Source: Candidatus Nanohalobium constans (GTDB lineage Archaea > Nanohalarchaeota > Nanosalinia > Nanosalinales > Nanosalinaceae). Taken from it: 32,000 bases of DNA. Made by a program: the position numbers and the translations under genes. Below are positions 1,835 through 15,865 of this stretch, piece after piece. The DNA is taken from assembly GCF_009617975.1 (NCBI RefSeq), contig NZ_CP040089.1:360001-392000 (forward strand), read 5' to 3'. How positions within the stretch are numbered: the stretch's first letter is position 1; the number at the start of each line of letters is the position of its first letter. The notes beneath the pieces were generated by a model that saw nothing but the letters and a program-made list of their open reading frames with translations, had not been told where the DNA came from and ran no database searches.

Positions 1835-3433
1835 TTGAAACCAAAAAGTACAAAGATACTTACAACACTTTTCTCACTTCTAATACTGACAGGAATAGCC
1901 ACAGCCACCGACCTACAAAACATAGAATCAATAACACCTCTAGGATCACAAAACATTAATGTCAACGGAACACTAGACCTAAACAATAACAACCCAATCC
2001 TAGCACCAACAAAAGTAGACGGAGTAGACCTAGACAACCCGGCATGGGGCCTATACCTCAACAACAACCAATACAGAATAGACACAGGAGACACAGACTC
2101 AAGATACCTAAACCGTAATGGCGATGCCATGACAGGAGATCTTAATCTGAAAGATAACAGTATAGAAAACGCTGTAATATCTCCTTTCTCATGGATAAGT
2201 GACCCGGTTATACTTGGTCATTACAATAATTACTTCATTGGTGCCGATGAAAAATGGAGTGTTTCATCCAACACTAATTGTCGTTCAGGAAGCTTAGAAG
2301 ATTTATTCGATCATCAGTGGAATTCAGGATGCGACTTCAACGATGCAGATCTGCCTGTAAAAATCAAAATAGATTTTAACAAAGCAAACACATACTCATT
2401 TTCCAACGACTTCGGCAAAATGATGCTTTACTTCGAGTACGGTAGACATGTTTCAGACGTCAAAGTCGAAAGATACCATGCCGGAGGAGACGACACCTGT
2501 GGAGACGGAAACGAATATTGGGATACCATATACCAAAACTCCAACTTTAAAGGCAAAAAGACCATAATAGACATGAAAGGAGATGGTCAGACCTGTCAAC
2601 TCAGAACCACACTGGACGGAAACTCTGAATATACCGACGACATAAGATTCAGCTCATGGAACATGTATCTCCACGGGGATAGAGGAACTCAAGGAGGCTC
2701 CCTAAGAAAATCAGGAGACAATATGTACGGACCACTGGATATGAGCAATAACCCAATCAAAAATATCGACTGGAGCAACAGCGACCAACCTCCTGGAAGT
2801 ACTGATGATCAAAACCTACAAGACACATCAAGGAACAGTGGTACAGTAACAATTCCAATAGAAAACGGAGGAAGCACGTCCTTCACCGACAAATACGAAG
2901 CCAATACAGACGCTGCCACGAGATGTGGAAGTGATGAAGTTCTTGAGGGAGGTGACAACTGTGTCTCAAATTATGAAGCCGCAGATGATGGAGATACTTC
3001 AAGCACAAACGAACTTCAGAACCTTGGTCAAGTCTTAAGTCGAGGAAGTGATGCCAACAACGCTAACCTAAACAATATTAACGATGTCAGATGGACTGAC
3101 AATTCCGGCAATGATATAGCAGGTTACGTGAACAGTGAGAAACAACTTGCATTCATCCAAAAATCAGGAACTGTAACCGGCGTAGCAATAAAAGCAGGCG
3201 ATCTAGACCTTGAAGGCAACTCCATAAACAATATAGGAGGACTTCAAAACTGTGGTGCAGACGAATTTGTCAACGGAAACGGAAACTGCGTGAAAGACAG
3301 CGATACCTCCAGCAGCCAAAACCTTCAACAAACACTGAGCAACGGAAACAGTGCAGGAACCAACAACATAGATCTAAACGGACAAAGCCTAACATCGTCA
3401 AATGGCGAAATTTGCGCCGGAAACAGATGCTGA
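1835..3433 (+). CDS. secreted fibre-like surface protein with tail-fibre-type motifs and a duplicated Cys-pair module
   Basis: TTG start followed by a Sec-type signal peptide (MKPKSTKILTTLFSLLILTGIATA). Motifs DSRYLNRNGDAMTGDLNLKDNSIEN (nt 2120-2170 covers the GDAMTG part) and SGDNMYGPLDMSNNPIKNI (2711-2767). Internal repeat CGSDEVLEGGDNCV...DTSSTNELQNL / CGADEFVNGNGNCV...DTSSSQNLQQTL. Confidence 0.75.
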   Translation: MKPKSTKILTTLFSLLILTGIATATDLQNIESITPLGSQNINVNGTLDLNNNNPILAPTKVDGVDLDNPAWGLYLNNNQYRIDTGDTDSRYLNRNGDAMTGDLNLKDNSIENAVISPFSWISDPVILGHYNNYFIGADEKWSVSSNTNCRSGSLEDLFDHQWNSGCDFNDADLPVKIKIDFNKANTYSFSNDFGKMMLYFEYGRHVSDVKVERYHAGGDDTCGDGNEYWDTIYQNSNFKGKKTIIDMKGDGQTCQLRTTLDGNSEYTDDIRFSSWNMYLHGDRGTQGGSLRKSGDNMYGPLDMSNNPIKNIDWSNSDQPPGSTDDQNLQDTSRNSGTVTIPIENGGSTSFTDKYEANTDAATRCGSDEVLEGGDNCVSNYEAADDGDTSSTNELQNLGQVLSRGSDANNANLNNINDVRWTDNSGNDIAGYVNSEKQLAFIQKSGTVTGVAIKAGDLDLEGNSINNIGGLQNCGADEFVNGNGNCVKDSDTSSSQNLQQTLSNGNSAGTNNIDLNGQSLTSSNGEICAGNRC

Positions 3434-3468: not shown

Positions 3469-4098
3469 ATGGAAGACGAAATAGAAGACATTGTGGAAGA
3501 CGAAGAGAAAGCAGAAAAACTCTCACAGCTTATAGAACAAAAAATAGAAGAAAAAGTAGAACAAGTATCAAGCAGAGAAACAGAACAAAGAGAAAAAAAT
3601 ACCAAAGAAGAAAAAGAGGAAGTATCCCGCCGAGGATTCCTGAAAAAACTAGGAGCCGGAGCACTCGGCCTAGGAGCAGCCTCAATGCTCCCATCAGTCT
3701 CAGCCTACGACATCAAATCCTCAGACGGACTAGAAGTCTGGTCAGGAAGCAATCAACTAATAGACGCCAGTAGCGCACCCGTAGAGATAATGAACTCAAA
3801 TCTCCGCCTCGCCACTGGTCGGAGTATCGAGGATGGGAATGGGAACTCTCTGTTCAACATCCGTGACGGATACGGATATATGCTACACGGACAGTCTGAT
3901 GAAACCTCAAGAGCGTTGTTACATGATAAAACAATGGGCAACACTGCTCTAAGTTACACCACGTCGACCAGCGCACCTGGCACGTTGGAATTGACGAACG
4001 CGGATTTGAATGTTGGTTCTAATAAAATTAAAACCAGTAATTTTGAGGTTGTGGAAAACTCTGATACTAATAGTTTGGATTTCAATTATACGGGTTGA
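3469..4098 (+). CDS. Tat-signal fibre-like secreted protein with a long acidic pre-RR extension
   Basis: SRRGFLKKLGAGALGLGAASMLPSVSA matches the Tat consensus S/T-R-R-x-F-L-K plus an h-region and AxA-like site, with RR at residues 54-55. Mature part ends in GTLELTNADLNVGSNKIKT. Paralogue of 13791-14963. Confidence 0.8.
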   Translation: MEDEIEDIVEDEEKAEKLSQLIEQKIEEKVEQVSSRETEQREKNTKEEKEEVSRRGFLKKLGAGALGLGAASMLPSVSAYDIKSSDGLEVWSGSNQLIDASSAPVEIMNSNLRLATGRSIEDGNGNSLFNIRDGYGYMLHGQSDETSRALLHDKTMGNTALSYTTSTSAPGTLELTNADLNVGSNKIKTSNFEVVENSDTNSLDFNYTG

Positions 4099-4107
4099 TT
4101 CTGGTTT

Positions 4108-7056
4108 ATGAGTCTAGTTGGTTGGTGGAAGTTAGATGGCAGTGCTGAGGATTCTATAGGAAGTTATAATGGTTATGAGCAAGGCAGTCCTTCTTATTCA
4201 AATGGGAAAATTGGAGATTGTTATGACAATACTAGTGGAGGTTCCAACGGTGTAGAGTTGATTCGCCATAGTGATTTCGTAGAGTATGAAGATTACTATT
4301 CCTTTTCACTCTGGTTTAAATCTACTACTACATCCGGTAATGGAGGGGCGCGTATCATATCACGCGATTACTCGGAATATGCTACTGTCTTATTAAGCCA
4401 GAATGAGTCATCACCACAGTCCTCCAGTAATAAAGGTCTACCCGATTTCTCTGTAAGCGTGAATCAATGGCATCACTTAGCATTCTCAGTAGATGTGGGG
4501 TCCGATGAAGCAAGGATTTTCCTTGATGGCGAACTTGTCGGTACTAGCAGCACCCATAATACTGAAGCAAATCGCCCCTATGTTATTGGAGGAAACACTG
4601 AAGGAGATGGAGATATAAGCGGCAACCACTTTGAAGGCAAGATAGATGATGTAAGACTCTACGATCATAAACTATCAAAAAAAGAAGTAAAGCAGCTTTC
4701 AAGGGCGAAAGTTTTGCATTACAAGTTTGATGATTTTGCCGAGTATACTGAGAACATAATTAAGGATAGTAGGTTAGAGGAGCCTGACATGGATTATGGT
4801 TGGAAGGGAAATGCTTCTAGTAATACAGTGACTAAAGAAGATAATTCTGCCCCTTATCCCGAGGTTGTTCGTTTAGAGAAAACAGGTTCGGATGATCAGT
4901 GGCATGGAATGCATGATAATACAGAAGTTGTCAGTCTATCATCAGGAGATCATGTAACATATTCAGGGTGGTACAGATTAGAATCGGGTGCGACCCAGAA
5001 AAATTTAGCCGGGTTAAACTGGGTGTCAGATGGTTGGGATACTAAAGGAAGCAAGTCTATCACGATGGAGGATGATGAACTTTGGCACAGGTTTGAGATA
5101 ACAGTTGAAATAACTCAGGATTATTCTGACGGCTTTCAACCTGGTCTAAAATGGGCTTATTCAACAGACCAACAGTGGCTGGAGCTATGTGGCGTACAGA
5201 TAGAAACTAAAGACCATGCAACACCATTTGTAGCAGGAACACGGAAAGATAAAGTAGTTGATAGTAGCGGTCAAGGCAATCATGGTCCTCTGGATTCAGA
5301 TACTCCTACCTGGATTGAAAATTCGAAGATTGGATCTGGTGCTTACAGTTTTGAAGGAGACAAGATTCCTGTGAAAAATCTGTATTATGATTCTGCCAGT
5401 CAACTTCCTGAACTTACTTTGTCCGCATGGATTAAAGTTGATTCTAGTGGACAGGTAATTAATTCATGGGATAGAAGTGAGTTTTGGCGTTTTGGAGTTG
5501 GAGGAAGTACAGGTTCCAACGCTATAGATATAGGATTAGCTGATGAAAACGGCGTATCAGATATCAGTGCTAATACAGATGTAACAGATGGAAACTGGCA
5601 TCACGTGGTCTTCGTATATGACCATGGTTCTGTTACATTTTATCTAGATGGTGAGGTAGATGGAACAGCATCCACAGGCGGTAATGCCATAGGACAGAAC
5701 TTGACGAGATATGGTTTTATCGGCGACTACAGTGAAGCAGATTCATTCAATACAGGGTCCGGAGGATCATTTACGGGAGAAATGGATGATATAAGAATTT
5801 ATCACTCGGCACTCAACCAATCAGAAATCCAGCAACTCTACAAACAGAGAGCCAGTATTGATGGTGGCGGTAATCTTCATTCACATGAATTGCATGAAGC
5901 AGAAAATAAATTTGATGATTTTGCCGGCGGCGTAAATTCAGATACAGAGGTATTAGGAGCTCAGGACGGGTTTGAAAATGTTTACAAGGTCGATGCTAGG
6001 GAGAACGATTCCTATGAGAATTTCTTAACTAATTTAGTCAAGACCTCTGACTGGAGTAACTCGGGCTCAGGAAATTATCTTTATCTAGTGTACTGGGCTA
6101 AGGGAAACAACATTCCGGACTGGAGCCGCTCTGAAAACATACAATATCCTTCACCAAGCACATCCGAATACCAAAAGTATGTATTCCGAAATGATGGTCA
6201 AAATTCTAGAGATGAGTACTTCAGACAGTTCTTCGGCAACTCTGATAGCACCAGTTATGCATACATAGCAGACCCAAAAATCTTTACACAATCAGAATAC
6301 AAAAAGAGGAACGGCGTAAAATCCTCAGGCATTTACTCAATGGACGAATTCAACGAAATAGGGCCTGGCGCTGATTCCCTTGTCGGTTACTGGCCTCTGG
6401 ATGGCGACACCCGGGATTACTCCGGCAACGGCAACCACGGCACCAACAACGGCGCCACAGTTACCTCTGGACTGGGGCAGAGCGCCTATAGTTTTGATGG
6501 TACAAGTAGTTATATTTCAGGTTCTGGAAGCTTTACTTTCGATAATCTGACATTTAGTGCATGGGTAAGATATGATTCTGATGCGTCAGGAGGGTCTGGA
6601 AGCTTAGGAAATGCTGTTATTTCAAGTCAGTCACCTACTTTTCAATCTTCTCTGTATGCTGATATGGATAGCAATGAGCAGTTGTTTTATGTCTATCCAG
6701 ATAACGCTTCGTCTTCTACAATCGTATCTACCTCAATATCAAAAGGTAAATGGCTATTTGTTACAGGCGTAGTTAGAGGTTCAAATGTGGTTTTATACAT
6801 AAATGGTATCGAGAAAGGATCTAACACCTTAGATACCGACGGCAGTATATCATGGGGAGATCCTTTTATAGGCAGAGGCAACAGCAGCGAATACTTAGAT
6901 GGAAAAATCCAAGATGTAAGAATTTTCAACCGTGCCTTAACCGAAGAGGAGATCAAAACTCTCTACAACTTGACTGATCCTCGGCAGGATCAAAGAGCGA
7001 TCCAAGGAAAAGATGGAACTGTTTACACTAAAGGCGAATTCAACGAGTTGTTGTAG
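4108..7056 (+). CDS. 982-aa protein with three LamG/concanavalin-A-like lectin domains; no signal peptide
   Basis: Three copies of the Laminin_G_3-type pattern: LVGWWKLDGSAEDS...GKIDDVRLYDHKLSKKEV; VVDSSGQGNHG...GEMDDIRIYHSALNQSEI; LVGYWPLDGDTRDYSGNGNHG...GKIQDVRIFNRALTEEEI. The N-terminus MSLVGWWKLDG has no hydrophobic segment. The start lies 9 nt after the stop of 3469-4098. Confidence 0.85.
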   Translation: MSLVGWWKLDGSAEDSIGSYNGYEQGSPSYSNGKIGDCYDNTSGGSNGVELIRHSDFVEYEDYYSFSLWFKSTTTSGNGGARIISRDYSEYATVLLSQNESSPQSSSNKGLPDFSVSVNQWHHLAFSVDVGSDEARIFLDGELVGTSSTHNTEANRPYVIGGNTEGDGDISGNHFEGKIDDVRLYDHKLSKKEVKQLSRAKVLHYKFDDFAEYTENIIKDSRLEEPDMDYGWKGNASSNTVTKEDNSAPYPEVVRLEKTGSDDQWHGMHDNTEVVSLSSGDHVTYSGWYRLESGATQKNLAGLNWVSDGWDTKGSKSITMEDDELWHRFEITVEITQDYSDGFQPGLKWAYSTDQQWLELCGVQIETKDHATPFVAGTRKDKVVDSSGQGNHGPLDSDTPTWIENSKIGSGAYSFEGDKIPVKNLYYDSASQLPELTLSAWIKVDSSGQVINSWDRSEFWRFGVGGSTGSNAIDIGLADENGVSDISANTDVTDGNWHHVVFVYDHGSVTFYLDGEVDGTASTGGNAIGQNLTRYGFIGDYSEADSFNTGSGGSFTGEMDDIRIYHSALNQSEIQQLYKQRASIDGGGNLHSHELHEAENKFDDFAGGVNSDTEVLGAQDGFENVYKVDARENDSYENFLTNLVKTSDWSNSGSGNYLYLVYWAKGNNIPDWSRSENIQYPSPSTSEYQKYVFRNDGQNSRDEYFRQFFGNSDSTSYAYIADPKIFTQSEYKKRNGVKSSGIYSMDEFNEIGPGADSLVGYWPLDGDTRDYSGNGNHGTNNGATVTSGLGQSAYSFDGTSSYISGSGSFTFDNLTFSAWVRYDSDASGGSGSLGNAVISSQSPTFQSSLYADMDSNEQLFYVYPDNASSSTIVSTSISKGKWLFVTGVVRGSNVVLYINGIEKGSNTLDTDGSISWGDPFIGRGNSSEYLDGKIQDVRIFNRALTEEEIKTLYNLTDPRQDQRAIQGKDGTVYTKGEFNELL
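6907..7056 (+). repeat. copy 1 (in-gene) of the ~145-nt LamG 3'-end direct repeat
   Basis: Aligns by eye with 7932-8074 and 8775-8910. All three end in gagttgttgTAG. Confidence 0.85.
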
Positions 7057-7067
7057 CAGTTGGTTTT

Positions 7068-7553
7068 TTAGTTTTCTTTGAGTATGTTGTCTGTGTTTAT
7101 TTTTCGGTTGTCTTTTCGTTCTATTGTTTTGATTGAGTCTTTGAGTTCGTCTTTAGAGATTATTTCTTTTTGGTTTAGTAGTTTGGCGAGGTTGTTGAAG
7201 GCTATTGTCTGTACTTCTTGTTTTTCTGCGTATTTGGCGGCGGCTTGATCCATCGTGAAGAATATTGCGTTTCTTGATTCTGCTACTGTGATGGCTTCAA
7301 GTTCGCCCTTGTCAACTGATTGTTCGTTGAATCGTTCTCTGTACTGTTTTCTTTCTTCTTTGGCAGGTGTTTCAGTGTCTAACTTATCGAATATTTTGTT
7401 TGGGTATTTGTAGCCGTGTTCAAGCGGTTTTTCGAGTTCCTCTTCAATTTTAGGAGTAATGACGACTTTGTGGTTCTTAAATAGTTTTAGTGTTTCGTCT
7501 ACAAGTTCGCCTTTGGCTAAGACACTGGCTGCATCTGTATCGATTATAAGCAT
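7068..7553 (-). CDS. PIN-domain toxin (DUF3368 / COG2405-like)
   Basis: MLIIDTDAASVLAKGELVDETLKLF... and ...VDKGELEAITVAESRNAIFFTMDQAAAKYAEKQEVQ match the DUF3368 PIN pattern. I prefer ATG at 7553 (7 nt after the upstream stop) over the TTG at 7577 used in the ORF track. Confidence 0.75.
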   Translation of the reverse strand: MLIIDTDAASVLAKGELVDETLKLFKNHKVVITPKIEEELEKPLEHGYKYPNKIFDKLDTETPAKEERKQYRERFNEQSVDKGELEAITVAESRNAIFFTMDQAAAKYAEKQEVQTIAFNNLAKLLNQKEIISKDELKDSIKTIERKDNRKINTDNILKEN

Positions 7554-7560
7554 ACGGTTT

Positions 7561-7881
7561 TTACAGCCTCTTTTCAACTTCTTCTTTCTCTTCCTCGCCG
7601 CCTTCTCTGGTCTCTATGTTTATTCCTCTCTCCTTGAGTTCTTCTTTGTAGTTTTCCAGGTCCATTTCTGCGAGTTCGGCAGCCCTCATAAGTGAGATAT
7701 CCTTACTTTTGTAGAGCTCTACCGTTATCCTGATCCGTTTCTCAGGGTTCTTCCTCAGGAAAGTTCTGAATGCATCTCTCATGACATCGCTTCTGGAACT
7801 ATATTCTCCAGAATCAACGAGAACATCAATTTCATCCCTCATAGTTTCGGGTATACTGAAAGAAGTACTGGCACTTGTCAT
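7561..7881 (-). CDS. antitoxin, RHH (CopG-like) N-domain fused to a UPF0175-like HTH domain
   Basis: SFSIPETMRDEIDVLVDSGEYSSRSDVMRDAFRTFL is a ribbon-helix-helix pattern. VELYKSKDISLMRAAELAEMDLENYKEELKERGINI matches UPF0175, the usual partner of DUF3368 PIN proteins. ATG 7881 is preferred over TTG 7902. Confidence 0.7.
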   Translation of the reverse strand: MTSASTSFSIPETMRDEIDVLVDSGEYSSRSDVMRDAFRTFLRKNPEKRIRITVELYKSKDISLMRAAELAEMDLENYKEELKERGINIETREGGEEEKEEVEKRL

Positions 7882-7900
7882 AAACCTAACAATAGTTAGC

Positions 7901-7912
7901 AATATTTAATAA
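7901..7912 (-). promoter_or_regulatory. TATA-like box for the RHH-PIN operon
   Basis: aatatttaataa is centred about 25 nt upstream (minus strand) of ATG 7881. Confidence 0.3.
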
Positions 7913-7931
7913 CTTTAGCGCTGTACAGCAG

Positions 7932-8074
7932 ACCCAAGATATAATCCGGCGAATATGACTGCTGAGGAGGTTAAAACTCTATACAATTTGACTGATCCTC
8001 GACAAAGTCAGAGAGTGATCCAAGGAAAAGATGGAACTGTTTACAGTAAGGGTGAGTTCAGTGAGTTGTTGTAG
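7932..8074 (+). pseudogene. orphan copy 2 of the LamG gene 3' end (no gene body)
   Basis: Reads ...NMTAEEVKTLYNLTDPRQSQRVIQGKDGTVYSKGEFSELL* in frame with TAG 8072-8074. Stops lie immediately upstream. 14 mismatches to copy 1 over the last 96 nt (hand alignment). Confidence 0.8.
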
Positions 8075-8108
8075 CTGTAAGAATCTTGATTTTTAGGCGG
8101 TGATATTG

Positions 8109-8510
8109 TTATTTTTTGAATTCTTTTGGTTTATGGACTTCGAGTTCTTTTATTTTGTTGAAGTGTGAGGTGTTTCTTGTCACTATTTCGAGTTCTTCGG
8201 CGAGTATTATGGATGCGATTAGCAGGTCCATGTCGTCTACTTTGTTGCCTTGTCTTTCCAGTTCGGCTCTTTTCTTTCCGAAGATATGTGAGCTTTTTGC
8301 TGTAGTATGTAGAACTTTAACGTATTGTGCTAACTCTTCAACGTCTTCCAAGTGTTTTTCTGTCTTGGTTGATTTTTCGGCGCCGTGGTATAGTTCTGCA
8401 AGTGTTATAGAGGTTATAGCTATTTCCTCCTCAAACTCTTGGATAAACTCCTCGGTTTCTTTGTCTCCGCGTAGAAAATCGATGACAACATCTGTGTCGA
8501 AAACTTTCAT
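8109..8510 (-). CDS. vapC: VapC-type PIN-domain toxin
   Basis: MKVFDTDVVIDFLRGD..., ITSITLAELYHGAEKS..., DLLIASIILAEELEIVTRNTSHF: a classic VapC layout with conserved acidic residues. Overlaps the upstream antitoxin stop. Confidence 0.85.
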   Translation of the reverse strand: MKVFDTDVVIDFLRGDKETEEFIQEFEEEIAITSITLAELYHGAEKSTKTEKHLEDVEELAQYVKVLHTTAKSSHIFGKKRAELERQGNKVDDMDLLIASIILAEELEIVTRNTSHFNKIKELEVHKPKEFKK

Positions 8511-8713
8511 CAGTTGAATCGCCGGGACTCGCCTTCTCTGCGTTCGTAAATCTCATTTTTCATTTCTTCCAGGCTTTCTCCTTCCTCTGTCTCGTAGTCA
8601 GACCAGGCTCCAGCCATCTCTTCAAACGACTCCTTCGACTGTACCTCTGACCTTATCTTCCTTATCTCATCCTCTATCCTATTGAGTCTCGAGGTTATAT
8701 TTGCAGTTACCAT
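8510..8713 (-). CDS. vapB: small acidic antitoxin partner of VapC (VapB-like, family not assigned)
   Basis: 67-aa ORF immediately upstream of vapC, overlapping it by 1 nt. ATG 8713. AT-rich box 8734-8744 lies about 25 nt upstream. Confidence 0.6.
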   Translation of the reverse strand: MVTANITSRLNRIEDEIRKIRSEVQSKESFEEMAGAWSDYETEEGESLEEMKNEIYERREGESRRFN

Positions 8714-8733
8714 GACAGTTATTCATCGAGCAA

Positions 8734-8744
8734 AATATTAAAAT
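8734..8744 (-). promoter_or_regulatory. TATA-like box for the vapBC operon
   Basis: aatattaaaat lies 21-31 nt upstream (minus strand) of ATG 8713. Confidence 0.3.
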
Positions 8745-8774
8745 CTGATGGATAACCCTACTCTTAGGACCTCA

Positions 8775-8910
8775 GGTTTTCAACCGTGCTTTGACTGCTG
8801 AGGAGATTGAATCGTTGTATAATTTGACTGATCCTCGCCGGGATCAAAGGGTTATCCAGAGCAGTGATGGAACAGTTTACACTAAAGGCGAGTTCAGTGA
8901 GTTGTTGTAG
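8775..8910 (+). pseudogene. orphan copy 3 of the LamG gene 3' end (no gene body)
   Basis: Reads ...VFNRALTAEEIESLYNLTDPRRDQRVIQSSDGTVYTKGEFSELL* ending at TAG 8908-8910. 18 mismatches to copy 1 over the last 96 nt (hand alignment). Confidence 0.8.
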
Positions 8911-9031
8911 GAATACAGATTTTTGGTTGTGTCTTCACAGAGGTTAAATTTTTTATCTTAGAGTAGCAGGTTAACTTCAAGAATTTTTGGGAAAGAAAAC
9001 TCCTATTAACTCAATGCAAACCTAAGAAAAA

Positions 9032-9041
9032 CATTAATATT
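9032..9041 (+). promoter_or_regulatory. TATA-like box for 9063-10253
   Basis: cattaatatt is centred about 26 nt upstream of ATG 9063. Confidence 0.3.
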
Positions 9042-9062
9042 CTAAACTGATAAAATATTCCT

Positions 9063-10253
9063 ATGGGTTTGAACGCTGCGGAAGTAATTAATCAAGCAGA
9101 ACGTGAAGAGGACCAACTCTACGATGACATCAGGGATGTTGCAGAGTGGTTCCACGAAAGGGAAGGAAAAATGTTTGAGAGAAGTGAAGCCGAGAAGAAA
9201 ATTAGCTCCGACCTTCAGTTTGAACCAGAACTTGTCAGTGAAGTTCTTGAAGAACTGACAAGCGACATTGTCGACCCTGTAGCACAGATAAACAACTCCC
9301 AAGGAAACTACATAGGCATAATCAATTATGAAGAATTCGACGCAGGTTACGTCTACCTAGACTACCACGATATAAACGGCGTACAAAAGAAAGCCGTCTG
9401 CGCAACATGCGTACAAAACTCAGAGAAAGACTCACAGGTAAAATATACATCATCAACTAAAATACAAGATGAAAAAAACCCCGACTACACAAAACTAAAA
9501 GAAGAAATAAACCAACACCACCAAAAACACCACAACACCAAAATAGAAAAAATAAAAACCGGAGCAACACTAGCAAGCGGAACAACAATAGGAGGAAACC
9601 GCGCAGCAACAAGAAACTGGGTCAACAACAACGCCGACGTTCCCAACGCCGACCATGCTGACAACGCTGGACAGCTTGAAGGTAATACTACCTCGCAAGT
9701 TCAAAGCCACTCTCCACAGGATCACGGAAACGGGTCGCATACCGAAAACTATGCCTCGCAGAATGATTTAGGGTATCAACTTATCGCCTCGGACGGTGCG
9801 AGCGGGTATATCGGCTCTGACGACGATCCTGATGTCTATACGTTCGATATCGGCAGCGGTTACACAAAAAGAGTCTTAACCTTTGAGAACGCCTCCGATA
9901 TTGATGCAAAATTGGGGGCGCGGTCTCCAGGAGTGGATTCATGGGATTATGTAAACCACGCGGAAGGTGCGGGTACTTCAGAGTTCTTCGGACAGGTTGA
10001 TGTGGCCGAAAGCGGTGCTGACATCGGTCCTGGGTATGCGTCATTTGAGGTAACTGAAGTACCCAGACCAGATGGTTCGATAAGTGTGGGGATCACTCGG
10101 TGGCATGACGAGATGAGTTCGGGCAACTATTATATTACCACCGCAGACCCCACGTTCTCGTCATCGTTCAGCACTTTAGAAGTTGTAGTTCAGCCAGACC
10201 CTCTTGACGACGGAGACTATGATTTTAGTTTTGAAGCATACTGCTTGAGATAA
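9063..10253 (+). CDS. modular fibre-like protein: conserved N-module (CxxC), K/H-rich linker, tail-fibre-type motif, unique C-domain; no signal peptide
   Basis: The N-module DIRDVAEWFHEREGKMFERSEAEKK...CATCVQNSEKDSQVKY...KTGATLASGTTIGGN is shared with 10687-11364. It is followed by AATRNWVNNNADVPNADHADNAGQLEG, a motif also found in 13791-14963, then a unique 190-aa C-terminus. Confidence 0.75.
   Translation: MGLNAAEVINQAEREEDQLYDDIRDVAEWFHEREGKMFERSEAEKKISSDLQFEPELVSEVLEELTSDIVDPVAQINNSQGNYIGIINYEEFDAGYVYLDYHDINGVQKKAVCATCVQNSEKDSQVKYTSSTKIQDEKNPDYTKLKEEINQHHQKHHNTKIEKIKTGATLASGTTIGGNRAATRNWVNNNADVPNADHADNAGQLEGNTTSQVQSHSPQDHGNGSHTENYASQNDLGYQLIASDGASGYIGSDDDPDVYTFDIGSGYTKRVLTFENASDIDAKLGARSPGVDSWDYVNHAEGAGTSEFFGQVDVAESGADIGPGYASFEVTEVPRPDGSISVGITRWHDEMSSGNYYITTADPTFSSSFSTLEVVVQPDPLDDGDYDFSFEAYCLR
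9561..9599 (+). repeat. 39-nt junction box, copy A (identical to 11182-11220)
   Basis: ggagcaacactagcaagcggaacaacaataggaggaaac encodes GATLASGTTIGGN. It is identical in both paralogues although the flanks are strongly diverged. Confidence 0.9.
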
Positions 10254-10686
10254 TGCTCAGAGTTAATTACTCCAATTCGTGTAGGTCGCCGTCGGGTGTT
10301 GAGTTAACAGGCGCGTCTCGTTTCGGGCTGCCTGTCGCTCATGGTTATTTGTCTTTGGCTGCGTAGTCGTTACCTGACAGATGCCTTCAGCTACCAGTGC
10401 CTATCGGAGGTTACTGGTTTCAAATCAAATAGTATGATAATGGCAGATAGATTTATCGACCAAGTAGCACCTGCTCACTCCCTTAATCTGCTCGTACTAC
10501 GACATTTTATCTGACTCTTGGATGCCGAGATGGTTATGTATATTCTTCTTTAACTGATTCTTCAATCCGTGTAGGAGCTAACAGTGGCAATGGTAAAGTT
10601 GCTATGCCGATGAAATTTTGAGTGTAAATAGTCTGCTGGAAAAGCTTAATAAGTAGTTTACCTAATGGTTGATTGTAGGTCGTGTT

Positions 10687-11364
10687 ATGAAGGCTGCTGA
10701 AAATGTGTTTGAGGAAGTAGAGGAGGATAACGTAGATATAGACAATTATGTCAGAGATGTTGCTGAATGGTTTCATCAACATGAGGGAGAGATGTTTGAG
10801 AGAGAAGAGGCAGTAGAAAAACTTGAGCAAGACTTTGATCTTAATGAAAAAGTAGCATCCTGTTTAATTGGAGAACTTGTAGGAGATAAAGTAGATCCTG
10901 TAGTGCAGATAAAGACAGATGATACTAGATACATTGGAGTAGTTGATTTCCAAGAGTTTGAAGGCGCCTATGGCTACATAGACCACCACGATGTCTTGGG
11001 CAAGCAAAAAAAGGTTGTATGCGCACAATGCGTAAAAAACGCTGCAACCGACTCACAAGTCAAATTCGAAACCGAAAAAATCAAAAACACAGAGAAAAAA
11101 CCAGACTACACCCACCTAACCAATAAAATACATTCCCACTACAAGAAAAGCCACAAACAAAAACCTGCAAAAGTTGAAACAGGAGCAACACTAGCAAGCG
11201 GAACAACAATAGGAGGAAACATCTCCTGGCACGCAGGCAACGACGGAAAAAACTCAGGACTAATAGCAGACAAAGTAGACGGAAAAGATGCTAATGATCT
11301 CGGAACTACAGCAGCAGAAAAAAGGTTTATCGCACTCAGCAAAACACACGGTAATGGGCAATAA
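10687..11364 (+). CDS. paralogue of 9063-10253: same N-module, short different C-terminus
   Basis: YVRDVAEWFHQHEGEMFEREEAVEK...CAQCVKNAATDSQVKF...ETGATLASGTTIGGN, then ISWHAGNDGKNSGLIADKVDGKDANDLG. ATG 10687 is preferred over the TTG at 10669 because it aligns with the paralogue's N-terminus. Confidence 0.75.
   Translation: MKAAENVFEEVEEDNVDIDNYVRDVAEWFHQHEGEMFEREEAVEKLEQDFDLNEKVASCLIGELVGDKVDPVVQIKTDDTRYIGVVDFQEFEGAYGYIDHHDVLGKQKKVVCAQCVKNAATDSQVKFETEKIKNTEKKPDYTHLTNKIHSHYKKSHKQKPAKVETGATLASGTTIGGNISWHAGNDGKNSGLIADKVDGKDANDLGTTAAEKRFIALSKTHGNGQ
11182..11220 (+). repeat. 39-nt junction box, copy B (identical to 9561-9599)
   Basis: Same 39-mer at the equivalent codons of the paralogue. Similarity stops exactly at its 3' end. 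Confidence 0.9.
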
Positions 11365-11367
11365 ATT

Positions 11368-11730
11368 ATGAATATAGGAGAAGGAACGAGCGGCGATTTA
11401 GAAATTACGTCAAGTGACACATGGTATACTATTAGTGTTCCAGCAGGTGAAACATGGGAGTTTACTACTGTTGGTTTAAGTTCAGGAAATCGTAAGGGTA
11501 ATGCACAGAATAATCATATTAAGGTTGGGTATGAGGATTCCAACGGAAATAACTATGTCTTGGTAGATCCAACAGACGACATGACCCCTCCTGTCGGAGC
11601 ATCACAGTTCGAAAACAACCATAGTCAATCTAAAACAATCCCAATAGATGGAGATACAATGAATGGTCTTTCTGTTAGATCTTCTATTGGGGGATACACA
11701 CTTGTTTGGTCGGCTGTGAGGGTTTCCTAA
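11368..11730 (+). CDS. small beta-rich protein, first of a tandem paralogue pair (MNIGE...)
   Basis: Starts 3 nt after the stop of 10687-11364. MNIGEGTSGDLEITSSDTWYTISVPAGETWEF...YTLVWSAVRVS aligns with 11732-12085. Confidence 0.65.
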   Translation: MNIGEGTSGDLEITSSDTWYTISVPAGETWEFTTVGLSSGNRKGNAQNNHIKVGYEDSNGNNYVLVDPTDDMTPPVGASQFENNHSQSKTIPIDGDTMNGLSVRSSIGGYTLVWSAVRVS

Positions 11731-11731
11731 T

Positions 11732-12085
11732 ATGAATATTGGTGAAACAAAGACGGATACAATTACAGTAGCGGGTGATTCAAATGATACGATTACTGTT
11801 CCATCTGGGGAAACGTGGAAATTCACTCATATAAACGCAAATAATAATAGTAATATATTGAGTAACGCTAATTTGTGCATTGGATACACTCTTTCTAATG
11901 GGGATCACTACATAATCAAAAATCAACGTGACGATCATACACCAGCAATTGGCGGAGAAGTGGCTCCAATAGATGATGCGTCTATTTCCTCCATTATTAT
12001 TGATGGAGATGTACACGAGGGAGTTTCTATTTGGGCTGATAGCAATGATTTAAAAGTATATTGGGCTGCAACACGTATTTCGTGA
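11732..12085 (+). CDS. small beta-rich protein, second of the tandem paralogue pair
   Basis: Starts 1 nt after the previous stop. MNIGETKTDTITVAGDSNDTITVPSGETWKF...LKVYWAATRIS. Confidence 0.65.
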   Translation: MNIGETKTDTITVAGDSNDTITVPSGETWKFTHINANNNSNILSNANLCIGYTLSNGDHYIIKNQRDDHTPAIGGEVAPIDDASISSIIIDGDVHEGVSIWADSNDLKVYWAATRIS

Positions 12086-13790: not shown

Positions 13791-14963
13791 ATGAAAAAAG
13801 ACTCTAATACCGACCAGAAAATCGAAGAAATAATAGAACAAAAAGTAGAGCAAAGAGTACAAGAAGAACTAGAAAAAAGAGGAATTGAAAAAGCAGAAAG
13901 CGACGAACAAGAAGAATCAAATAAAAAAGAAGTCACCCGAAGATCATTCCTCAAAAAACTAGGAGCAGGAGCAATAGGAATCAGCGCACTATCACTCAGC
14001 CCAGCCTCAGCACTAAACATCAGAAGCAACGACTTCAGCGTCTACGCAGGCAACGACTCAACCAAAGAACTCCAAGTAAACAGCGGCGGACCAGTAGAAG
14101 TTAAAAATTCTGACCTGGATTTAACTGGAGGCAACTTAGATAATACAACTTTTATTGATTTCGGAGATAGAGATGATGATGGATATTATTGGCGGCAAGG
14201 AGTTCTCTCAGATGACGAATGGTTTCTTCAGTGGAGAAATGACAACGGAGATAATAAAATACCTTTGAGAATACCGATGTCTTCTAACTACATCCGAATT
14301 GATGAAAATATTAGGTTGCAGACAGGTCAATCGCTTGAAGATGATTCGGGAAACAGTAGACTAGAGTTTAATTCATCTACGGCGACTCAGGTCCGTGATG
14401 GAGCAGGAAATCTGGCAGCACAGTACAAGGACTCCAACCATATAAAGTTCTTCCCAAGAAGCGGTCAACCTTTCATCATAAATGATCAGAATGGAGAGTT
14501 TAACGCAGTTAAATACACAACCGACTCAACCAAAGGAACTCTAGAGTTGACCAAAGCGAACCTAGACATGAGGAATAACAATATCAAAAATGTCGAAAAG
14601 ACAACATTCAACAACTCAGGCAATGACTTCTGGCGGATAAATGATGGTTCGGGAGGGTCCAATACCAGCCCGCACACAGCACGATTTGACGATAGAGACA
14701 TGAGGTTCTACTCGGGTACAGGAATTGGAACAGTCTGGAGGCTAAACCAAGACGGCTCAGTAGAATATCCCGAAGGACCAGTAACTATCAATGGAGACCA
14801 AGTAGCAACCCGGAAATGGACTAAAAATAATGCTGATGTACCCAATGCTGATTATGCTGATAGTGCTGGTGATGCTGACACTGTGGATGGTAGTAATGTT
14901 TTTGTGCAGTCTTCTCAGCCTTCAAATCCTTCTAATGGGGATATATGGGTTGATACTAGTTAA
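13791..14963 (+). CDS. Tat-signal fibre-like secreted protein, paralogue of 3469-4098 with a longer C-terminus
   Basis: TRRSFLKKLGAGAIGISALSLSPASA with RR at residues 50-51, after an acidic extension. GTLELTKANLDMRNNNIKNV. C-terminus VATRKWTKNNADVPNADYADSAGDADTVDGSNVF. Confidence 0.8.
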   Translation: MKKDSNTDQKIEEIIEQKVEQRVQEELEKRGIEKAESDEQEESNKKEVTRRSFLKKLGAGAIGISALSLSPASALNIRSNDFSVYAGNDSTKELQVNSGGPVEVKNSDLDLTGGNLDNTTFIDFGDRDDDGYYWRQGVLSDDEWFLQWRNDNGDNKIPLRIPMSSNYIRIDENIRLQTGQSLEDDSGNSRLEFNSSTATQVRDGAGNLAAQYKDSNHIKFFPRSGQPFIINDQNGEFNAVKYTTDSTKGTLELTKANLDMRNNNIKNVEKTTFNNSGNDFWRINDGSGGSNTSPHTARFDDRDMRFYSGTGIGTVWRLNQDGSVEYPEGPVTINGDQVATRKWTKNNADVPNADYADSAGDADTVDGSNVFVQSSQPSNPSNGDIWVDTS

Positions 14964-15865
14964 TGGCGGAACACATTCTTCATGGTCCTGACAGTGAGCA
15001 ATGGACTGTTCCTGAGGGGGTCACCGAAGTTACTATTGAGTGCTGGGGTGGTGAAGGAGGAGATGGAAATGGAGATACTGATGATGGAGCCGGAGGTGGA
15101 GGCGGCTATGTGAAAGGAGATCTATCTGTTACTCCGGGAGAAACCCTGCATTTGGTAGCAGGCGGAGATGCTTACCGTGGAGAGGATTCCGGCGGATTTC
15201 CTAATGGAGGTAGCGGAGACGTCAGAGGTACGAATATGGAGTATCAATTGGTAGAAAGTGGGGGCGGCGGTGGTTCCTCACACGTTATGCAAGGTGGATC
15301 TGACCGCCAAAACGATGTTGTTATCGGGGCTGGCGGCGGTGGTGGAGGTGCAGCCGTTAGTTCAGGAGGTGGCGCAACTAACTATGATGACGGTAAGAGA
15401 GGTGGTCACGCGAACGGAGGTGATGCACCAGATACAATAGAATACGAAGGAGGGCAGGGAGGAGAAAGCAGCAAGTCAGATCCAACAATTGGAGAAGATG
15501 GAAATCAAGAAAAAAAGACAAAGGATGGAGACGCATATCTTGGAGCCAGTGGTGGAGGCGGAGGAGGTTTCAATGCTGGAAGCCGCGGCATAGTAGATAT
15601 TACCTTCAGCAGAAACGACCTCAACGCCACAGGAGGAGGAGCAGGAGAACAATACACTCTAGGCGTAACCAATGTAACAACAAAAGACAATGAAAATACA
15701 GGAAACGGCAAGGTCAAAATTACGTACACAGAGCCTGTAACTGTGAAATACTGGGATGGATCAAAATGGGTTTCAGGCAGGCTAAAATACTGGGATGGAT
15801 CAAAATGGGTTATGGCAAACGAAATAAGCAACTTTGACGGCTCACAATGGCAGACAACATCCTAA
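14963..15865 (+). CDS. glycine-rich-domain protein (phage-associated Gly-rich type), no signal peptide
   Basis: WTVPEGVTEVTIECWGGEGGDG followed by four poly-Gly tracts (GAGGGGGY, ESGGGGGSS, GAGGGGGGAA, GASGGGGGGFNAG). C-terminal KYWDGSKWV repeated. The ATG overlaps the upstream stop (TAATG). Confidence 0.75.
   Translation: MAEHILHGPDSEQWTVPEGVTEVTIECWGGEGGDGNGDTDDGAGGGGGYVKGDLSVTPGETLHLVAGGDAYRGEDSGGFPNGGSGDVRGTNMEYQLVESGGGGGSSHVMQGGSDRQNDVVIGAGGGGGGAAVSSGGGATNYDDGKRGGHANGGDAPDTIEYEGGQGGESSKSDPTIGEDGNQEKKTKDGDAYLGASGGGGGGFNAGSRGIVDITFSRNDLNATGGGAGEQYTLGVTNVTTKDNENTGNGKVKITYTEPVTVKYWDGSKWVSGRLKYWDGSKWVMANEISNFDGSQWQTTS
15746..15811 (+). repeat. two perfect 27-nt copies at 39-nt spacing inside the Gly-rich gene
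   Basis: aaatactgggatggatcaaaatgggtt occurs at 15746-15772 and 15785-15811. It encodes KYWDGSKWV twice. Confidence 0.9.

Follow-up and report, generated by a model that had tools for sequence, protein, structure and literature searches.

Work by Haggard-Ljungquist et al. (1992) and Sandmeier (1994) is said to have described mosaicism in phage tail fibers, which reportedly keep a conserved N-terminal part for attachment to the baseplate and exchange their C-terminal parts horizontally. In the gp37/gp38 adhesins of T-even phages (work of 1996 and 1998, as cited in PMC3157838), short, conserved glycine-rich motifs part the variable receptor-binding segments, and exchanges within or beside these motifs create chimeric adhesins. 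We analyzed a 32,000-nt stretch of the chromosome of the nanohaloarchaeon Candidatus Nanohalobium constans (NZ_CP040089.1, positions 360,001 to 392,000; hereafter the window), in which two tandem genes, A and B, share an N-terminal module (N-module) that is followed by a 39-nt box, GGAGCAACACTAGCAAGCGGAACAACAATAGGAGGAAAC, identical in both. We consider it probable that A and B are anciently diverged members of a tail-fiber family, that the identical box reflects a short conversion of A by B at the hinge between module and fiber, and that the same hinge serves as a crossover point for fiber tips in viruses. The parts of the two genes are as follows (ORF, open reading frame).

9063-10253, + strand: gene A, a 396-aa ORF, 100% identical to P0001, which is annotated as a hypothetical protein
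9063-9557, + strand: N-module of A, residues 1-165, delimited from the family alignment and AlphaFold
9561-9599, + strand: box copy in A, an exact match encoding GATLASGTTIGGN; putative recipient of the conversion
9600-10253, + strand: C-terminal part of A, opening with the fiber motif RAATRNWVNNNADVPNADHADNAG and continuing into an orphan domain of ~190 aa
10254-10686: spacer between A and B, with short ORFs only
10687-11364, + strand: gene B, 225 aa, identical to P0004
11182-11220, + strand: box copy in B, an exact match; putative donor of the conversion
11221-11364, + strand: short C-terminus of B, ISWHAGNDGKNSGLIADKVDGKDANDLG..., a canonical post-box fiber motif also present in viral homologues

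As in the mosaic fibers of tailed phages, a constant N-terminus is found on many unrelated C-termini, baseplate genes precede the family gene in viral contigs, and tandem copies occur on one contig. The family differs from them in that its N-module is undescribed, with a winged-helix-like part and a CxxC...Hx4H part, and in that many of its copies are chromosomal in Nanohaloarchaeota, beside a LamG adhesin and not in a prophage. The resemblance to gp37/gp38 lies in the Gly/Thr-rich box and a GNDGxGSGLxAD motif that mark the breakpoints here. There is, however, no sequence or fold relationship between those adhesins and the A/B family, whose hosts are archaeal or halophile and not enterobacterial, whose junction falls between an N-terminal globular module and the fiber rather than inside a specificity domain, and whose exchanges are deduced from natural sequences and not from crosses. 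Tip exchange at conserved motifs is one more case of a known pattern, not a new mechanism, and extends the rule that fiber tips swap at conserved motifs, drawn from the T-even phages, to an unrelated fiber-like family encoded on hypersaline viral contigs and nanohaloarchaeal chromosomes.

A preliminary description of the window had reported an N-module shared at roughly half amino acid identity with diverged DNA, and a box identical at both sites, and both observations are borne out. The proteins align over 179 aa with 49% identity (E = 2e-57), up to an end exactly at ...GATLASGTTIGGN, and are 42-43% identical outside the box; at the DNA level, the 45-nt segment that holds the box reaches 98% identity against 42-71% elsewhere in the module, and identity is 74% over the 129 nt of which the box forms the end. 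The two copies are direct repeats, 1621 nt apart, and the bases that border them differ between A and B (acC/acA before, Cgc/Atc after). No third copy is present in the window, even with 3 mismatches allowed (0 expected by chance). The contigs of a one-genome-per-species (GTDB) set gave 0 exact matches to the 39-mer and a profile-guided scan likewise no relative, in a set where the N. constans chromosome itself is also unmatched and the source region seems absent or masked. The further statement that the box lies exactly at the boundary of the shared region is correct for A and B and does not extend to the family: because ~90% of 153 members go on after the box, as B does, with TA(W/F/I)HxGNDGxGSGLxAD, the usual boundary lies ~17 residues later than the box end that bounds the module in the A/B pair. 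B, with its box followed by xxWHAGNDGxxSGLxAD, is a tail-fiber-like protein of this canonical subclass; A, likewise tail-fiber-like, falls by the family alignment in a minority 'RVATRxWV' subclass, R(V/A)ATRxWV following the box in seven members only.

A neighbor-joining tree built on residues 1-165 places A as sister to P0002, a protein of another organism, in 57 of 60 bootstraps (61% identity) and pairs B with P0027 (51% identity), while A and B are never sisters (0/60). The box tells a different story: here A is the same as B, whereas 10 of 39 nt and 3 amino acids set it apart from P0002. Among the 166 informative N-module sites in the A/B/P0002 triplet, A sides with P0002 at 98 and with B at 68, and the last 10 of them (9566-9599), all in the box, side with B (run-length permutation p = 0.008). 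The same is seen in the protein, in that the other members of the 'RVATRxWV' subclass have Ala172 (6/6) and Val176 (5/6), whereas A, alone in the subclass, carries Ser172 and Ile176 as B does. Moreover, the Ser172 codon of A is AGC, as in B, compared with GCA or GCC in the relatives, from which it differs at all three positions. All 13 box codons are identical between A and B, for which we obtain p ~3e-4 from the amino acid-specific codon frequencies of other window ORFs that strongly favor A/C-ending codons and p ~7e-4 from the A-B same-codon rate at identical residues outside the box (39/68); other homologue pairs in the same bin of amino acid identity (0.4-0.5, n = 27) share 29% of box codons. 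The identity of the two boxes is most likely due to a short gene-conversion tract, the phylogeny of which conflicts with that of its flanks, and the conversion would have run from B into A. The box peptide of B is also the most frequent exact box variant in the family.

The tract has the acC/acA mismatch as its 5' limit and the end of homology as its 3' limit and is at most 39 nt long. It resembles ectopic gene conversion between paralogues in being a short identity tract in otherwise diverged genes, in the confinement of the discordance to the tract and in having its edge at the end of homology, but differs in being unusually short and in coinciding with an invariant peptide. Because of this coincidence, the signal rests on 13 synonymous sites and 2 amino acid states. 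If the reading is right, a DPANN archaeon provides a documented case of ectopic conversion over a very short tract. We also considered whether P0002-like donors had recently supplied the 5' parts of A or B that are low in A/C-ending codons, and rejected this because A-P0002 identity stays flat, at 58-76%, along the module.

In mechanistic terms, A and B would each consist of a constant globular N-module of ~165 aa, a hinge motif, TGATLASGTTIGGN, and a variable fiber or receptor-binding C-terminus, the module acting as a presumed anchor and the C-termini as presumed binding tips; the hinge would be conserved for the protein and not for the DNA. Since no other stretch of near-identity between two members is as long, the hinge is where homologous pairing could start. 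A heteroduplex between the tandem copies at the box, followed by mismatch correction, would copy the B version into A over at most 39 nt, with the 3' end of the tract fixed where homology stops. In virus populations, the hinge motif and the next conserved motifs downstream would act as crossovers that join one N-module to different tips.

Several observations weigh against this explanation. The length of the tract is very small, with no more than ~74% identity in its flanks; the box of another nanohaloarchaeon (L039) differs from that of N. constans at only 5 of 39 nt; and the chance probability may be underestimated because codon bias alone already gives high similarity. In addition, monophyly of the A subclass is recovered in only 29 of 60 bootstraps, and tandem pairs on single contigs behave inconsistently, that on L016 sharing 8/13 box codons against 0.67 outside the box and that on L018 showing a weak excess (11/13 against 0.55).

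One rival explanation is coincidence, in which a structurally invariant peptide together with strong A/C-ending codon usage yields identical DNA without recombination. N. constans strongly prefers A/C-ending codons, and A and B use them near-exclusively across a central patch containing the box (85-100% of third positions A or C, in line with the prevailing style of the genome). By a count from the sequence, ~10 of the 13 identical residues upstream of the box within this patch already share their codon, and the similarity of the L039 box is in keeping with the same idea. Codon bias makes identical codons more likely, yet falls short of accounting for them: amino acid-specific codon frequencies give p ~1e-4 to 3e-4 for 13/13, and coincidence leaves unexplained both the Ser172/Ile176 unique to A in its subclass, with the AGC codon of B, and the 10/10 run of B-type informative sites. 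We regard it as unlikely and favor gene conversion. Recent tandem duplication, after which the rest diverged while purifying selection held the box identical, would account for the tandem arrangement, the same orientation and the common domain. We consider it very improbable, given that each gene is closer to that of another organism than the two are to one another outside the box, and that purifying selection on a protein leaves synonymous sites unprotected. It is rejected by the neighbor-joining tree, and on this phylogeny A and B are not recent duplicates.

Whether the box is conserved as DNA bears on two further explanations. We compared codons for all pairs among 16 homologues from outside the window, binned by amino acid identity, and found same-codon fractions in the box of 0.29, 0.59 and 0.63, against 0.40, 0.48 and 0.59 in the rest of the module. 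A degenerate back-translated box found one locus in IMG/VR, with quite different codons, the same peptide being encoded in a viral contig by GGTGCGACTCTCGCAAGTGGGACGACCATCGGTGGAAAC. Compared with the N. constans box, those of seven other homologues from nanohaloarchaea carry changes at 5-13 of 39 positions. P0002, the nearest homologue of A, has 5 of 10 box codons in common with it. The preliminary description had proposed that the box is maintained at the nucleotide level, and had named a peptide kept with freely varying synonymous sites as the observation that would speak against this. That is what the homologues display, their synonymous sites varying as freely in the box as elsewhere, and the proposal fails. 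The box is, as judged from these comparisons, conserved as a peptide and not as DNA, and we read its exact identity in A and B as a recombination footprint and not as a selected DNA site. A role of the box as a nucleic acid signal, for instance in translational control or as a site bound on RNA or DNA, has nothing in its favor beyond the identity itself and is hardly credible: homologues alter the nucleotides freely while keeping the peptide, the box is almost purely A/C/G-poor coding sequence unable to form stable pairs, and the window gave no Rfam match. A scan of the window for transfer RNAs was also negative.

The same free variation of synonymous sites argues against a 39-mer selected to stay identical as a site for swapping C-terminal cassettes within the genome, in a programmed or semi-programmed variation system. 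In favor of such a system, exact identity stops with the final base that the two genes share, related viral populations do exchange tips at this junction, and the C-terminal part of A is of foreign composition (GC ~51%, with codons outside the native A/C-ending style). The switch in codon style and GC in A, however, lies ~50 nt 3' of the box, inside an NADxADNAG motif; if the tip of A was imported, that motif rather than the box was, by composition, probably the junction. There are only two copies of the 39-mer in the window and silent C-terminal cassettes were not found, and a crossover between the two direct copies would delete 1621 bp, including the C-terminus of A and the N-module of B, and fuse the N-module of A to the tail of B, rather than exchange the tips. 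Among the window ORFs scanned with Pfam there is no recombinase, invertase or reverse transcriptase, nor are there inverted repeats of note in the window. A constant N-terminal part with alternative C-terminal parts is also the arrangement of shufflons, pilE/pilS, the invertible fiber segments of Mu and P1, and diversity-generating retroelements, but the A/B repeats are direct, and inverted repeats, silent cassettes and the enzymes of those systems are missing nearby. Programmed switching is rejected on the lack of silent cassettes, recombinase and inverted repeats at A/B, and we hold such a system to be quite improbable. Of the earlier proposal that the box is a recombination or conversion site, what survives is a conversion signature and breakpoints at or after the box; dedicated switching and a selected DNA site do not.

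Exchange of tips is seen in pairs of related viral metagenome contigs with high nucleotide identity upstream through the box, which collapses at or after it to chance level (about 20-40%).

L016_3038 and L017_2600: 97% identical over the 339 nt up to the box, collapse within the last box codon; C-termini of 40 and 268 aa
L016_1195 and L035: 93%, collapse at the 3' end of the box
L014 and L017: 91%, collapse ~25 nt past the box, after HxGN
L023 and L033: 99%, collapse ~45 nt past the box, within GSGLxAD
L023 and L032: 94%, collapse ~55 nt past the box, after GSGLxAD
L024 and L028: 94%, collapse ~130 nt past the box

In the first of these pairs, the 30-nt segments downstream of the break are 40%, 20% and 30% identical. 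Conversely, one tip, YEIQKNGSDGNGIINFKT, is common to P0002, P0003 and the viral P0010, on distant N-modules. Judging from these junctions, the hinge is a site of C-terminal exchange in the family. A constant N-terminal anchor with exchangeable C-termini, as first suggested for A and B, fits the whole family, with total lengths between 165 and 1031 aa.

A profile of the shared module, run against 1.84 billion representative proteins, gave at least 189 clusters. Among the full-profile matches listed, the module is always N-terminal, at about residues 1-180; the proteins listed are 127-1031 aa long. The family layout is a constant N-module of ~165 aa, a conserved motif, TGA(T/S)LxSGTTIGGN, and a variable fiber-like C-terminus. 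Column statistics over the 153 members identify the box, with the consensus (T/P/V)GA(S/T)L(A/V/L)SGTTI(G/A/S)GN, as the most conserved segment, and Cys-113, Cys-116, His-152 and His-157 as near-invariant, a CxxC...Hx4H pattern that may constitute a metal site. AlphaFold models residues 1-165 of B with pLDDT 88-98 (78-sequence alignment) and the same module of A with 65-89, as a helical winged-helix-like subdomain followed by a β subdomain, in which the four near-invariant Cys and His residues lie; the box and everything after it are of low confidence in the monomer models, with post-box pLDDT below 55. A Foldseek search of the A and B models against PDB and BFVD found no significant relative, only weak winged-helix matches (all E > 0.04) that assign no function to the N-module, and neither A nor B has a Pfam match. 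With nothing matching it in Pfam, PDB or BFVD, the N-module has not been described before. A search of 50,697 genomes of isolated phages and viruses gave no match, either as DNA or as protein.

The fiber-type motifs that had been noted after the box in both proteins are recovered in homologues. In A, the motif ATRNWVNNNADVPNAD recurs across many halophile fiber-like proteins (P0012-P0024), as do its NNADVPNADxAD repeats, and for residues 210-396 no homologue, and hence no donor of the foreign-composition part, was found. In B, the stretch from residue 170 to 218 has a match in PHROG 25563, a family of unknown function (E = 1.9e-6), and residues 167-185 weakly resemble the first part of a PHROG named 'long tail fiber distal subunit' (E = 0.018). 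By tblastn, 11221-11364 matches many loci from viruses and metagenomes in the region that follows their box. The absence of a signal peptide, also noted before, agrees with inspection by eye of both sequences, neither of which has a hydrophobic or twin-arginine N-terminus. From sequence, the family is an uncharacterized one of predicted virus-type tail fibers, sizeable and unannotated, common to halophile viral contigs and nanohaloarchaeal chromosomes, with an N-module that is confidently predicted and has no known structural relative.

Members of the family occur in two settings. The N-module is present on four IMG/VR contigs; on the viral contigs that encode P0010 (25-57 kb, also encoding a family-B DNA polymerase), the gene follows tape-measure, gpU-like and Baseplate_J genes and precedes a gene for a 371-aa protein, and other viral contigs carry two tandem copies with a glycine-rich protein after each. 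This location in a tail or baseplate module holds for viral members and not for A and B, which are virus-type fiber genes residing in a cellular chromosome, among cellular genes and outside any prophage. Their neighbors in the window include a LamG protein, two toxin-antitoxin (TA) pairs, TatA/TatC, Pus10, L21e, KsgA and CTP synthase, and other nanohaloarchaeal contigs likewise provide cellular surroundings, for example a tRNA synthetase, DinB and a CPSF-type (β-CASP) nuclease. No gene remnant was found in the spacer 10254-10686, nor any similarity to the fetched loci (tblastx and blastn gave self-matches only), and none was found at 8911-9062, upstream of A. The neighbors most relevant to the comparison are the following.

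4108-7056, + strand: LamG/concanavalin-like protein of 982 aa (Pfam Laminin_G_3, E = 3e-64)
11368-11730 and 11732-12085, + strand: two small tandem paralogues of 120 and 117 aa, 35% identical, directly after B

The order in nanohaloarchaea is a LamG protein, TA cassettes, the N-module gene and a small protein, the last with an 'IDG..ITIDG' N-terminus like that of the viral downstream gene. In N. constans the slot of this 'IDG..ITIDG' protein, or of the glycine-rich partner of other relatives, is occupied by the two small paralogues, which are without a family match and have marginal similarity to those partner proteins (E = 0.007). LamG is the conserved upstream neighbor in L002, L003, L037, L038, L040 and L041 as well as in the viral contig L009 (IMGVR_UViG_3300007631_000005), where positions 5861-9558 encode a LamG protein, an N-module fiber gene and a glycine-rich-domain protein. 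Because this is the same three-gene order as on nanohaloarchaeal chromosomes, the pairing of LamG and fiber may itself be of viral origin.

Nanohaloarchaeal LamG/ConA-like lectin proteins have been proposed as a host-specific attachment system (PMC7443923), in a report that does not mention A and B. The fiber-like genes resemble that system by position, lying directly downstream of LamG in N. constans and at least six other contigs, and differ from it in that A and B lack a LamG domain or a visible signal peptide. Conserved adjacency suggests a functional link of A and B to LamG, and the order of LamG adhesin, TA cassettes and fiber-like gene makes this a candidate host-attachment locus. A bolder idea, to which we give little credence, is that nanohaloarchaea domesticated a viral tail-fiber cassette for attachment to their hosts, with the N-module docking on LamG and tips swapped at the box. 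Docking might then involve the highly conserved 40-aa tail of LamG, the box and later motifs would be crossovers for acquiring tips from viruses or relatives, the symbiont could retarget its haloarchaeal host, and the conversion patch of N. constans would be a visible trace of ongoing exchange at the hinge.

The LamG gene has an unusual 3' end. Its last ~134 nt (6923-7056, ~40 aa, LYNLTDPR..GEFxELL) recur with 75-80% nucleotide identity as orphan tails at 7941-8074 and 8777-8910, each preceded by a minus-strand TA pair (7068-7902 and 8109-8713). The layout is the same in three independent nanohaloarchaeal contigs, L004, L039 and L040, where the LamG end is followed by 2-4 more tail copies (3-5 in all), spaced by small TA, nucleotidyltransferase or TumE cassettes, with the fiber-like gene last. 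No integrase is visible in these arrays, which look like the product of repeated cassette insertion by recombination within the conserved LamG 3' tail.

Codon style varies along the window in ways that go beyond A and B. In most ORFs, on either strand, 70-95% of third positions are A or C, and balanced or T/G-ending codons are found in LamG, TatA/TatC and 11368-12085, as well as in the first third of both A and B and in the second half of A. The style flips within a few tens of codons inside 9063-10253, 10687-11364, 1835-3433, 3469-4098 and 13791-14963; mosaic ancestry, expression-linked bias and selection for unstructured mRNA are candidate causes.

Two of the ORFs just named, 3469-4098 and 13791-14963, encode paralogues with a twin-arginine signal (RRxFLKKLGAGA) and N-terminal regions that are 43% identical. 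The longer, 13791-14963, ends in GDQVATRKW..NNADVPNADYADSAGDADTVDG, the post-box fiber motif of A written in T-ending codons (14799-14939 of the window). Since this protein carries both the signal and the motif, the fiber motif also occurs on a predicted exported protein. Directly after it lies ORF 14963-15865, which has sub-threshold Pfam matches to glycine-rich domains and contains a perfect 27-nt direct repeat (15746-15772 and 15785-15811, 39 nt apart).

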